A stretch of DNA of 64,000 nt, taken from positions 40,054,001-40,118,000 of the forward strand of contig CM052816.1 in assembly GCA_028534125.1 (NCBI GenBank), given 5' to 3'. The notes under the pieces are model-generated. The model was not told where the DNA came from. It did not search any database and was given only the letters and a program-made list of their open reading frames with translations. This document shows, piece by piece, positions 3,353 to 43,300 of the stretch; position 1 is the stretch's first letter, and each line of letters starts with the position of its first letter. The position numbers and the translations under genes were made by a program. This stretch comes from Lama glama (taxonomy: Eukaryota).

Positions 3353-5063
3353 AAAGTGATGCATATTACTCCACAGCAGCAGCAGCAGCGAGTAGCGTTT
3401 TATTTGAAATCCAGAATATGTTTGTTTACTGCTTAAAAATCAAAAGATAACCTAGAGTAGTTAGCATCCTAACCATGCATTGCTGCCCCTCCACTTCCCG
3501 CCCCCACCCCTCCCCGTGGCATCTCAATATCCTTTTAACTTAAATGAGAAGCTGTTTTATTCTTGCTGTTTCTGCTGGTTGAGAAGTCAGTGTGATAGAG
3601 ATGCATTAATGCAAGCGGGATTTGCCTAGACATCAATAAACGCAAAAGGCTCCCGGCGGGCCACTTGTAGTGTCAATAAAGGTTCATAATTACTTGCTCC
3701 TTTGAGCATTTTAGACCCAACCTCCTATTTGCTCTGTTGTAAATAGGAGACTGAAGACTTGAGAGGTTCTTAACTTTTTAAATCTTAGGGGAAGAATGGC
3801 AAACATTGCCAGGGATCGCAGGTTTTTAACCAAAGGTGTTGGCTGTTAGCTGTGTTATTTTAGGCTGTCAAGGGACTAGAAATTAAGAATACCTGCTTTT
3901 GCCCTCCTCCTTCCATGGAGGATTGGTGGTGAGTCTCACCTTTTCTGGGTTTAGGGAGGTGTAAACCCCAGGTACCAAGAGTGGATGACAGCTGGAGACA
4001 CTGCTCAACCTGAAGGAACAAGGAACTGAACTGAGAGAGGCTCTGGGGGAAGGGATGGAGGCGGAGAGCTTGGAACCTGCTCAGATACATGGGGGAGATC
4101 CTGGCTTCCGGACACTGTCTCACGCGAGGGTACCACGGACCCATCTCCAGCAGCCCCGCGGTAAAAGCCAAACCATGGCGTGGTGTAACCAGAGTAGCAA
4201 GCTTCTCTTTGGGTGAGGGTGGGGACCAAAGACGTGGAGAGGTACTCTGACTAAAGACTTGACCCCAAGAATGGAAAAGTGCCCCTGCCACACAATACAG
4301 TAGAAGTGACAAACAAACAAAACAAACAAAAGACAGTAGAGGGGAGGAGAGGGTGAAAATTAGGCTAAATACACATTATTGAGACTTTCAGAGAACTTGC
4401 TCTTCCGTCTTCCTTTCTTCTTCCGTCCTTCGTGTGTGTGTATGTAGGTGCACTTGCGTTTAAACAGCAGTTTCTGCTTTTCTCATAATCCTGTTTCTCC
4501 ACAGCGAAGTTTAAGTGGGATTGGGTTTTCCTTGACTGCTGCGTGAGGAGTTTCCAAATAGCAATGAATAAGAGTCACATAAATATCCATAAAGTTCCTA
4601 GTGACACCTCTGTCATCACTTGCTTCCTGCAAGATTCTGAGTTGGGGTGGTCATCTAGGACCCTCCCTGAGTGGACGATCTGCTGATCCGCTCATGTGTG
4701 TATCTGTACTTTCCAGATTGAGCTGTGCACGGAATATAAAACGTCCTCCGACTCCTTCCCCCTCCCTCCCCCACGCACTCTGCTAGGAAGGCGTGCGTTT
4801 GTGTGTGCGCGTGTGTATATTTAGCAAAGACACTTGGAAGAACCTACCCCTCTTGCTACCCACCCCGAGCTTTATCCGAGCAGGACATATCTCTGATCTG
4901 TCCCCAGCTGAAGTATCCCTTCCACGCTGATGCGGACAGACTATCTCGGTGCTTCCTTGTACACAGAGGTAACGCTTTGGTGTCCCGGGAGGGCGACCAG
5001 ACTTAATCCTAGTGCGCTGCGCTCTTCACACGATGTGCGAGTACTGGTGCGTGCGTGAGTGTT

Positions 5064-5098
<35 letters not shown>

Positions 5099-5101: not shown

Positions 5102-5184
5102 ACTGTGATTTTGTGAGCTTCCTCTCCCGGCACTGTGCAGGCAGCGCCGGCGACGTTACTCTCCAGCAACGCAAGGCAACAGCA

Positions 5185-5266
5185 GCCTCCGCCCCCTCAG
5201 TCCCGTGATTGGCTGGTTTTGCTCATCATTTCCCTGCTAGGAAAAGGGAAGGGCCAGTGACGCCCC
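5185..5266 (+). promoter_or_regulatory. ST8SIA4: TATA-less core promoter: GC box (Sp1/KLF), inverted CCAAT (NF-Y), half-CRE
   Basis: CCGCCC at 5189-5194, ATTGG at 5208-5212 (context GTGATTGGCT) and TGACG at 5258-5262. Consistent with the Sp1/NF-Y-driven rodent PST promoter as I recall it. Confidence 0.75.
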
Positions 5267-5269
5267 CGA

Positions 5270-5594
5270 ACCCAGCTGCAGAAGCGGCCGCCACCTCCAG
5301 TGCACAAGGTGTCTCTTCTGAAAAGAAATCTGAGCCCCAGGGAGGCAGCGCGGAGAGACTAGGGCAGGGCTGGCGGGAACCGCGAGGGAGAGCGCTGGGC
5401 AGCGTTGAGAGACCAGCGGGAGCTCGGCCGCAGAGGACCCTCGAGACCTGCTGCTGAAATCCCAGCCCCACGCTCTCCTCGCGCTTTACAGATTACCCCC
5501 CACGTCCACGCGACTACATCTCCCCAAAACGGAGCCTTCACATGAAGAGAAGGTGAGGGAGCTGGGGCAACCAGGACTTTCCCGGGCACCCAAG
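5270..5594 (+). other. ST8SIA4: Probable 5' UTR of ST8SIA4 exon 1 (TSS approximate)
   Basis: GC/CpG-rich sequence between the core promoter elements (5189-5262) and the ATG at 5595. The 5' boundary is inferred, not observed. Confidence 0.6.
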
Positions 5595-5707
5595 ATGCGC
5601 TCCATTAGGAAGAGGTGGACGATCTGCACGATAAGTCTGCTCCTGATCTTTTATAAGACAAAAGAAATAGCAAGAACTGAGGAGCACCAGGAGACGCAAC
5701 TCATCGG
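5595..5707 (+). CDS. ST8SIA4: ST8SIA4 coding exon 1 (cytoplasmic tail, signal anchor/TM, start of stem; codons 1-38)
   Basis: ccaagATG at 5595 translates to [38 protein letters not shown], the ST8SIA4 N-terminus as I recall it. Ends ATC GG|gtaaat (GT at 5708); 113 nt, phase 2. Not in the ORF track because it is short. Confidence 0.97.
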
Positions 5708-6702
5708 GTAAATGCAAAGCTTCATTTTAGGATATGACAAAAAGTCTACCCGTAAATGAAATGTGAATATAGACTATAGAGTGAGGGGATAGTATGTGTG
5801 TTCGTGTCAGCTTGTGTGTGTGTTCCGTCCCAGGAATTAAATAACAAAGGCTGTTGTTGAGGTGTGTGTGCTTCTCTACGGCGTGCTCCCGGTACGAGTT
5901 CAACTTGCACTGTGCGGTGATAGTGACAGTTGTGTTGGCGCCAGGGCTCGCACGCCAAGGAGAAGTCACCGCAGAAGTGTCAACAAAGAACGGGTGCCCT
6001 TGTCCTTTTCATGACAGGTCAGAACTCATCCGAGATGTCTTTATTCACCATCTGGTTGTCCTGCCTTCTTTCTCTGCCCTATCGCTATCCGGAGATTCTA
6101 GAGAAAGCTGGCTTCCTGAAAGGCTGAAGTTAAAGCCCAGAAAGCAGGAAATGTGTCTCCTCTGTTTCTTTACAATTCTTTGGCATTGGATAGGTCTGTG
6201 TATCTTAATTTTAATTAGAAACTCCAGGACAACCAACGATACTTACTTGCTCTCCGTGGGTAAAATGCATGGGCGTCATGGTTACAGTTTTGGAAACCGG
6301 GTATTGTAGCTTCACACAGACTGTATTTCTGCTTTCTTTAGTTTGTCTAGATGAGTGCAGAATCTTCCTCCACCCAGTAAGTTCTCTAAATATCACACTT
6401 CCTTCCTCCCTCCCCCTGGCCTCTGTGTCTTTGAAGTTTACCCAGGAGGTGGCTGCGACTTTGTGTTGCTTACATAGCTTGGAAGCGTTTTCTGAGGATG
6501 TGAACCTGGTTGTCAACTCTGTTCAAAGTCCTGTTTCGGAAATCCTCCCTCATCTGGAGGCGTCCGTTGTTGCTATCGGAAACTCAGAACTAGCAGAGAT
6601 ATCAGCCTGGTTTTTATTTTCCCTGACATTTATGAAAACGAAGCTAGAACCTTTGCCATTGTGTGTGTTGGGGCGGGAGAGGGGCGCACAGGACCGCTAA
6701 AA

Positions 6703-6959: not shown

Positions 6960-8050
6960 TTTTATTCGGGGCGGGGGGGGTGCGATGCCGAACTCTATGA
7001 GGCCGTTAACACACGGAGTGGGTGGGTGGAAAATTCAGCCTAGCTCGATTGTCAGAAAAGAAGGGCTCCGGGCGGGGGTGTGGGCATCCTCTGTAGACCT
7101 GCGCTTTCCAGGCAGACAAAGGGGTCTTCAGGAAGGTGGTGAACCGGCGCCTGGGGGAAAGGCGGAGGCTGGGGCGTGGGGGTCGAGGCTCTTTGTTCCC
7201 TTCCGGTCTGGTGGGCTCCGAAGATAAGCTTGAGTCCAGACAAAGCGGCCAAGCCTCGCCAGGACTCTGAGGTTCGGGCCCTTGGCTCGCAACCTCTGGA
7301 GAGCGAGAGTGGGCGGGACGAGTGAGGCGAGAGGAGGCGCCACACGCTGCCAAGGCGCCTTCTCCCGGCCTCCCTAAACTGCCGGCAGGAAGGAGGAGCG
7401 CACCCCAAGTCCCTCTGGGGGAAACAGACTTGGGATGCCCCCACTTCGCGGGCGACCTTCCTCCTGTGGCCTTTGCTGGACGCGGCCGGGCGTGGACGAA
7501 GAGGAGGCGGGCGCAGGCAGGCAGGGACGCGGCGGTCGGGCTAGCCGCGGGGTTTCTCCCGCACCCTTTTCCGGCTGAGCCGACCTTTCCCAGCTCCTCT
7601 GAGATTGCGCGGGGCGGGCGCAGGAGTTAATGAAGCAGGAGGAGAGGTGCGCACAGGGGCCTCCCCTTGCTCCCCGAGGGCTGGCAGCGTGGGTGGAAGA
7701 ATGAGCGAGGAGACGGGGGAAGTTGTTGCAGGAATCAGGCCCCCTTAAAAATAATAATAATAACTTTTACTGCTCAGTCTCCAACCGGGCTCCTCCTCCC
7801 TAATTAATCGCGTAATTACGGCTGTGCGGGGCGAGGCGGAGAGCCGACTGCCGGCGTCGCGCGTGCCCGTGTCCCTCAGCGCCCGCTCCCGCCGCCGCCG
7901 CCGCCGGCTCTTCCCTGAGACCCTGGAGTGGGCGCCGCCGGGGGCAGCGTGAGGACCGCTAGTGCCCCCTGGGTGCCTTTTCCCTCCTCCCTCGGATGAA
8001 TCGTTCAGAGGAAAAGCTTGTGGTACCAGTTGAAGATTTCGTTTCAACTC
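6960..8050. promoter_or_regulatory. Second, denser CpG island in intron 1
   Basis: Very GC-rich with abundant CpG, several GGGCGG/GGCGGG boxes and a (GCC)n run at about 7890-7905. Confidence 0.85.
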
Positions 8051-11560: not shown

Positions 11561-11960
11561 GTTTCTGTGTCTTCTGTGAAAATAAAATTACAATATTGGG
11601 ATGCAGGAGAACTGGCCAAACATCCTGTCTGTATTGTCTAAACACAGCAGGGAGGGAGGGACTAAAGGGGAACAGAACTTTGATGGGAGTTTTTTTTTTT
11701 TTTCTTGAAATAGCACAAAGATCTTTTCTTTAGATGAAAATATTTTTATTTCAAAAATGGTAAGTGTAAATGATTGTCCTGATAAAGCCATATTCACCTA
11801 ATCTTTATAATGCCTTCCATCATGCTCATACAACTGTTCTAACTTGTAGAAAAAGTTGCATCTATAATTTGTCACCTGTACTCTAAATCAATTATGTATT
11901 ATGCTACGTAAACAAAATGCAGCTTACTTTCACAAAGCTGACATTTTGGTTTTTTTTCAG

Positions 11961-12092
11961 AGATGGTGAACTGTGTTTGAGTCGATCACTTGTCAATAGT
12001 TCTGATAAAATCACTCGAAAGGCTGGCTCTTCAATCTTCCAGCATTCTGTAGAAGGTTGGAAAATCAATTCCTCTTTGGTCCTGGAGATAAG
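11961..12092 (+). CDS. ST8SIA4: ST8SIA4 coding exon 2 (stem, start of polybasic region; codons 38-82)
   Basis: Acceptor ttttttttcag|A and donor AG|gtgagt; 132 nt. Translates (G)[43 protein letters not shown](R), with N-glycosylation sequons at N50 and N74. Confidence 0.97.
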
Positions 12093-20566: not shown

Positions 20567-20824
20567 GAAGAACATTCTTCGTTTCCTAGATGCAGAACGA
20601 GATGTCTCAGTGGTCAAGAGCAGTTTTAAGCCTGGCGATGTCATACACTATGTGCTGGACAGGCGCCGGACGCTGAATATTTCTCGGGATCTGCATAGCC
20701 TCCTACCTGAAGTTTCACCAATGAAAAATCGCAGATTTAAGACCTGTGCAGTTGTTGGAAATTCTGGCATTCTGCTAGATAGTGAATGTGGCAAAGAGAT
20801 CGACAGTCACAATTTTGTAATAAG
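20567..20824 (+). CDS. ST8SIA4: ST8SIA4 coding exon 3 (polybasic region, first part of sialylmotif L; codons 82-168)
   Basis: Acceptor atatag|G and donor AG|gtgagc; 258 nt. Reads [23 protein letters not shown]...[30 protein letters not shown], the GT29 sialylmotif L. Lies inside ORF 20502..20828. Confidence 0.98.
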
Positions 20825-43006: not shown

Positions 43007-43300
43007 GTGTAATCTAGCTCCTGTGGTGGAGTTTGCTGCAGATGTGGGAACTAAGTCAGATTTTATTACCATGAATCCATCAGTTGTACAAAGAGCATTT
43101 GGAGGCTTTCGGAATGAGAGTGACAGAGAAAAATTTGTGCATAGACTTTCCATGCTGAATGACAGTGTCCTTTGGATCCCCGCTTTCATGGTCAAAGGAG
43201 GAGAGAAGCACGTGGAGTGGGTTAATGCATTAATCCTTAAGAATAAACTGAAAGTGCGAACTGCCTATCCATCACTGAGACTTATTCATGCTGTCAGAGG
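43007..43300 (+). CDS. ST8SIA4: ST8SIA4 coding exon 4 (end of sialylmotif L, most of the polysialyltransferase domain; codons 168-266)
   Basis: Acceptor ttttttcctcttcag|G and donor GG|gtaagt; 294 nt. Reads [25 protein letters not shown]...[21 protein letters not shown], with sequons at N204 and N219. Lies inside ORF 42912..43304. Exon 5 (YWLTNKV..., sialylmotifs S/VS) is not seen in the window. Confidence 0.98.

Follow-up and report, generated by a model that had tools for sequence, protein, structure and literature searches.

ST8SIA4 (ST8Sia IV or PST), a polysialyltransferase of family GT29, puts polysialic acid on NCAM and neuropilin-2. The human enzyme contains four disulfide cysteines and five sequons, and both disulfides and N-glycans are found on it (accessible part of PMC12682141). 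Short upstream open reading frames (uORFs) in mammalian leaders have in common an AUG and an in-frame stop codon preceding the main ATG, and their effect is governed by start context and reinitiation (accessible part of PMC13631847). In human internal exons with alternative donor pairs the stronger site was found to dominate in 86% of the cases, and the upstream donor was favoured beside long introns (accessible part of PMC9225289). Of activated cryptic exonic donors, 86.8% were located within 100 nt (accessible part of PMC12081236).

Here we describe an element in the leader of llama ST8SIA4 that resembles these systems in part. It has the AUG and in-frame stop of the short leader uORFs; it differs from them in that the stop codon is also part of a donor-like site, and its translation is predicted only. 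As with other competing 5' splice sites there are two donors for one acceptor, and by the trends in the accessible part of PMC9225289 the upstream one should, on paper, have the advantage in both strength and position. Unlike those internal-exon donors, this site is located in a first exon, where its use would remove the start codon and the membrane anchor. Its distance of 155 nt from the true donor exceeds that of the majority of activated cryptic sites in exons (accessible part of PMC12081236). The accessible parts of the open-access literature searched, including PMC10225777, PMC12081236, and 10.1101/377770, contained no report of the element, and neither a uORF nor a pseudogene of ST8SIA4 was described in them.

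The ST8SIA4 Gene

The window, i.e., the whole stretch of DNA analyzed, comprises 64,000 nucleotides of the Lama glama contig CM052816.1 (positions 40,054,001 to 40,118,000 of the forward strand). ST8SIA4 exons 1 to 4 were found on the + strand of the window, with exon 5 outside it:

5595..5707, + strand: ST8SIA4 exon 1, coding part (cytoplasmic tail, signal anchor, and beginning of the stem)
11961..12092, + strand: ST8SIA4 exon 2, containing a strong-context, out-of-frame AUG at 11963
20567..20824, + strand: ST8SIA4 exon 3
43007..43300, + strand: ST8SIA4 exon 4
G000:C1:40142729-40143010: ST8SIA4 exon 5, past the window end

The gene is intact, with five exons and a full-length product of 359 aa. 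The 38 residues of exon 1 were identical to those of the cat, bat, and pig orthologues (38/38), and compared with 18 full-length homologs the whole protein has three substitutions in 359 positions against the majority sequence (I56T, Q122R, and A311P). The homologs suggest a laurasiatherian mammal as the source. The llama gene is an orthologue of ST8SIA4 in which cysteines and sequons are kept; Cys142, 156, 292, and 356 and the sequons at 50, 74, 119, 204, and 219 are all present in the predicted protein. The main ATG at 5595 has dA at position -3. The true donor of exon 1, CGG/GTAAAT at 5707/5708, matches the donor consensus at seven of nine positions and is in phase 2.

An Upstream ATG Overlaps a Donor-like Site

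Two overlapping features were identified ahead of the main start:

5542..5556, + strand: uORF MKRR-stop, four codons, weak context, with its stop 38 nt ahead of the main ATG
5550..5558, + strand: donor-like 9-mer AAG/GTGAGG, 8/9, phase 2, candidate donor

The ATG at 5542-5544 had been described in the initial annotation as the only one between the promoter and the main start, and this was found to hold for positions 5102-5594. The sequence reads ATG AAG AGA AG/GTGAGG as given there, with AAG/GTGAGG matching the MAG/GTRAGT consensus at eight of nine positions against seven of nine for the true donor, and frame arithmetic placed both donors in phase 2, also as proposed. Without splicing, the frame opened by this ATG encodes only MKRR and is closed by the TGA at 5554-5556, and thus has the AUG and the in-frame stop ahead of the main start that define a uORF. 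The TGA is located within the donor-like site itself, a point absent from the initial annotation. The context of the AUG is weak, with dC at -3 and dA at +4, compared to the dA at -3 of the main ATG.

That the upstream donor is the stronger of the two agrees with predicted U1 pairing energies of -10.1 and -7.6 kcal/mol for the upstream and the true donor, respectively. Among 3343 GT sites, nine equalled or exceeded the upstream site in U1 pairing, while 64 did so for the true donor. Position 5553 therefore qualifies as a candidate donor by both GT consensus (8/9) and U1 complementarity (-10.1 kcal/mol). A purine-rich run is located just 5' of the site, and three G-runs are located 3' of it (5557-5559, 5564-5567, and 5584-5586).

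We infer that the transcribed ST8SIA4 leader includes position 5542. Promoter boxes are located about 340 nt before the ATG, and orthologous mRNA models reach beyond the position equivalent to 5300.

Frequency of the Arrangement

A donor matching at least eight of nine positions occurred in 3.1% of 5000 dinucleotide shuffles of positions 5300-5594. A donor with an open phase-2 ATG occurred in 0.34% of 5000 such shuffles, a figure qualified by the ATG-plus-donor pattern having been picked post hoc. The arrangement would be uncommon for any one gene, yet tens of cases would be expected per genome. Intron 1 contains four further instances of an ATG with an open phase-2 donor of at least 7/9, one of them, at 11734-11759, with stronger U1 pairing. 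At 11734-11765, 200 nt 5' of exon 2, an ATG is followed by the open phase-2 donor ATG/GTAAGT (8/9, U1 pairing -11.0), which on paper outranks the site at 5553. Within the gene we found 19 GT sites that match at least eight of nine positions. Since only three of the 19 are known donors, consensus match is a poor predictor of donor use.

Predicted RNA Folding and Access of U1

5535..5559, + strand: predicted 7-bp hairpin with 5535-5541 paired with donor positions +1 to +7 (-7.5 kcal/mol)

The loop of this hairpin consists of exactly the 11 nt between the ATG and the donor. Its predicted pair probability was dependent on window size and ranged from 0.01 to 0.97 over five folding windows. In the folding model the donor-like site at 5553 is located in GC-rich folded RNA, whereas the true donor at 5708 is open and AU-rich. 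Opening was predicted to cost 6.5-11.0 kcal/mol at the upstream donor compared to 2.6-3.5 kcal/mol at the true one. With this cost included, the net energy of U1 binding was -3.6 to +0.9 kcal/mol for 5553, compared to -5.0 to -4.1 kcal/mol for 5708, and binding was poorer at 5553 in six of six windows.

With shuffled flanks (300 trials), the donor was closed equally well in 7% and 74% of the cases, so that the predicted masking is not beyond chance. The genuine donor of exon 4 has a comparable opening cost (4.6-7.8), and the bases deduced for an older version of the site reduced the opening cost by only about 1.5 kcal/mol. A hairpin selected for masking the donor was considered and found to be unsupported, since the closure did not exceed that obtained with shuffled flanks.

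Coding Potential of the Proposed mRNA

When 5552 is joined to 11961, the ST8SIA4 frame gives [13 protein letters not shown], and the mRNA is shortened by 155 nt, in agreement with what had been proposed. The lengths proposed for the products were likewise reproduced, with 325 aa for the joined form and 359 aa for the full form, and the signal anchor is lost upon joining. Consistent with this, the hydropathy peak within the first 60 residues is 1.41 in the full form and drops to 0.65 in the joined form.

The open frame into exon 2 is thus compatible with a 325 aa isoform devoid of the anchor. The start context of this frame is poor, and the frame has a stronger competitor. In the spliced mRNA the next AUG is located 13 nt downstream in exon 2, out of frame and with dG at both -3 and +4. 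From this AUG (11963) an ORF of five codons is read, which ends at 11980. Ribosomes are able to bypass a weak-context AUG by leaky scanning (PMC13631847). With a weak AUG followed by a strong out-of-frame AUG 13 nt further on, little anchor-less protein is therefore predicted. Most ribosomes would end up at the strong exon 2 AUG, so the spliced mRNA would mainly represent lost output. Any chain that was made would have no anchor and would miss the ER, and would therefore be without disulfides and glycans (deduced from the accessible part of PMC12682141). A functional nuclear form is unlikely. Altogether, the frame arithmetic and the loss of the anchor given in the initial annotation were retained, while a substantial protein product is disfavoured by the weak AUG, the competing AUG, and the lack of an ER route.

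No protein starting with MKRR-DGEL or MRRR-DGEL was found among the 63 listed proteins that contain exon 2 (0/63), a weak negative in that the survey covered 15 proteins each from two large clusters of 373 and 48 members. The best match to llama exon 2 among the listed proteins was 98%, and none was exact. Nine of the 63 entries lack the anchor: six result from read-through in the acceptor region of intron 1, two have starts unmatched in the window, and one is a pangolin model. The pig entry P0017 is 325 aa long; the length match was found to be coincidental, as the entry retains exon 1 and has internal gaps.

Distribution of the Site among Mammals

Some gene models are over-extended into the leader, which they translate in the main frame; in this frame the llama sequence reads S-H-E-E-K-V-R. 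Seventeen leader rows of this kind were compared by codon inference; nine were found to be compatible with the site and five incompatible, while three marsupial rows were different. The compatible rows (narwhal, two muntjacs, and six ruminant-like) read Y-E..V-R, which fixes the dG at donor position +5 and, provided that Tyr is encoded by TAT, permits the ATG. With the same Tyr codon, whale and ruminant leaders would likewise have 11 nt between ATG and GT. The incompatible rows (mouse, hamster, macaque twice, and one primate-like) read Y-Q..V-P, which rules out both the ATG and GTGAG. The initial annotation had suggested that the site may be lineage-specific and missing from the human leader, which fits the primate rows compared here. 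By codon inference this is partly supported, in so far as macaque and rodent leaders cannot carry the ATG or GTGAG; the site does not look species-specific, since whale and ruminant leaders can. The leader comparison suggests that the site is clade-wide and old. In mouse, hamster, and macaque the RefSeq models begin at the equivalent of 5300, and the mRNAs of these species therefore span the site.

A scan of metagenomes for orthologous DNA gave a single match, which was a chance similarity to unrelated sequence. In protein searches the outcome was 0 of 502 candidates scored with the leader frame and 6 of 62 with the narwhal leader.

The GTG at 5300-5302 of the window is an ATG in the mouse, hamster, macaque, and muntjac models, which results in an in-frame extension of 86-95 residues. 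The llama lineage appears to have lost this upstream AUG, and upstream AUGs may come and go within the ST8SIA4 leader. The marsupial models (P0033, P0037, and P0041) have an in-frame start 18 codons upstream, which is roughly as far from the main start as the out-of-frame ATG of the llama.

A Partial Duplicate and the Promoter

A second copy of the promoter, exon 1, and exon 2 was found on the same strand 484 kb upstream (G000:C1:39573955-39579363, matches L002, L008, and L012). It is 77% identical to the gene over 1585 ungapped columns, and 87% identical in exon 1. Exon 1 of the duplicate is frameshifted and exon 2 is split by the insertion of a repeat, which we take to be L1-like. Searches with exons 4 and 5 gave no second copy on that contig. 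The CpG island of the duplicate is kept, with an observed/expected ratio of 0.67 compared to 0.71 in the gene, which hints that its promoter is still unmethylated.

The duplicate retains CAT and GGTGA and is without the ATG and the dG at +5. GGTGA is common to both copies, so that the donor core must date back to the duplication or beyond. Exon 1 of the gene is still conserved at 38 of 38 residues, so the true donor must have stayed in substantial use beside the upstream site. The concern that the ATG or GT bases could result from an assembly error finds little support: CAT and GGTGA are shared with the duplicate, and the Glu, Lys, and Arg codons of relatives back the other bases. On these two lines of evidence such an error is unlikely.

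Two boxes of a likely core promoter were found by motif scan:

5189..5195, + strand: GC box (Sp1-type), likely core promoter
5207..5212, + strand: inverted CCAAT box (NF-Y type), also present in the duplicate

The mouse promoter reportedly contains a GC box and an inverted CCAAT box, with transcription starting about 333 nt before the ATG. We take the llama boxes at 5189 and 5207 to match these elements. Further upstream, positions 4700-4780 of the window, with a TATAAA at 4735, are strongly conserved in the duplicate and could be a distal promoter or enhancer. A GT microsatellite at 5047-5096, some 100 nt 5' of these two boxes of the core promoter, is missing from the duplicate.

Interpretation of the Element

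The element is most likely an ordinary uORF over a cryptic donor. In its specific form, a weak-context uORF encoding MKRR over a mostly silent cryptic donor with normal splicing at 5707 dominant, we find this reading somewhat probable. Most ribosomes would scan past the weak AUG at 5542, and the minority diverted by it would slightly lower ST8SIA4 output. U1 would bind preferentially to the true donor, which is open and AU-rich, rather than to the upstream site in its folded, GC-rich surroundings, and the upstream donor would be used in less than about 2% of transcripts. Against a mostly silent donor are its stronger U1 pairing, the purine run, the three G-runs, the strength and position trends in the accessible part of PMC9225289, and a masking no better than in shuffles. 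The U1 pairing, the runs, and these trends, together with the cap-proximal position, argue for a real minor donor used in roughly 2-20% of transcripts. This we hold to be plausible, with appreciably less confidence. The spliced mRNA would be unproductive, and ST8SIA4 output would suffer a constant leak: the weak AUG would be skipped by most ribosomes in favour of the strong exon 2 AUG 13 nt on, with its five codons, and any anchor-less protein would be cytosolic, unglycosylated, and degraded, consistent with the disulfides and N-glycans of the enzyme (accessible part of PMC12682141). The lower net accessibility of 5553 speaks against such a leak, as does the finding that none of the 63 listed proteins shows such an isoform; moreover, the exons in the accessible part of PMC9225289 are internal and already alternative, not first exons.

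That splicing here is a regulated switch, perhaps controlled through the hairpin, by which polysialylation is shut down or a 325-aa isoform with a function in the cytosol or nucleus is made, is improbable. The fit of frame and phase (0.34% of shuffles), the 11-nt spacing that whale and ruminant leaders may share if Tyr is TAT, the hairpin loop that matches those 11 nt exactly, and the anchor-less pangolin and turtle models that exist via other routes are all compatible with it. It is opposed by the weak AUG with its stronger competitor, by the absence of the site in rodents and macaque, by a hairpin not beyond chance, by deduced older bases that lower the opening cost by only about 1.5 kcal/mol, and by the ER folding steps that an unanchored chain would miss. 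If true, a regulated splice removing start and anchor would be a form of post-transcriptional control not found in the literature searched and a difference between mammalian groups. We attach equally little credence to an 11-nt dual-use element of the hoofed-mammal and whale clade, acting as a damping uORF when unspliced and as a micro first exon when spliced, with the balance set by the hairpin; if true, it would be a splice-level dial on polysialylation that is absent from rodents and primates. That the site is outside the mRNA, with transcription starting downstream of 5544, or that its bases are an assembly error is very unlikely. The promoter boxes some 340 nt before the ATG and the orthologous mRNA models that pass the 5300-equivalent speak against the former, and the CAT and GGTGA of the duplicate and the Glu, Lys, and Arg codons of relatives speak against the latter.

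Other Routes to an Anchor-less Form

The donor at 5552 is used in none of the annotated mouse, pangolin, and turtle isoforms. Mouse isoform 3 (NP_001407932.1) skips exon 3 and retains the anchor, whereas the pangolin XP_036867857.1 and the turtle XP_075788191.1 are both without the exon 1 anchor, as is the form proposed here. The turtle isoform X2 (P0027) starts at the Met of exon 2. The pangolin form is a single automated model and uses a join from the position equivalent to 7646 to exon 2, for which the window has a counterpart in intron 1:

7630..7646, + strand: ATG in the CpG island of intron 1, with a weak phase-2 donor (6/9); candidate alternative first exon end (MKQEER-DGEL)

By this join an anchor-less form, of 327 aa, could arise in a second way that is independent of the donor at 5552; the U1 pairing is just -5.4.
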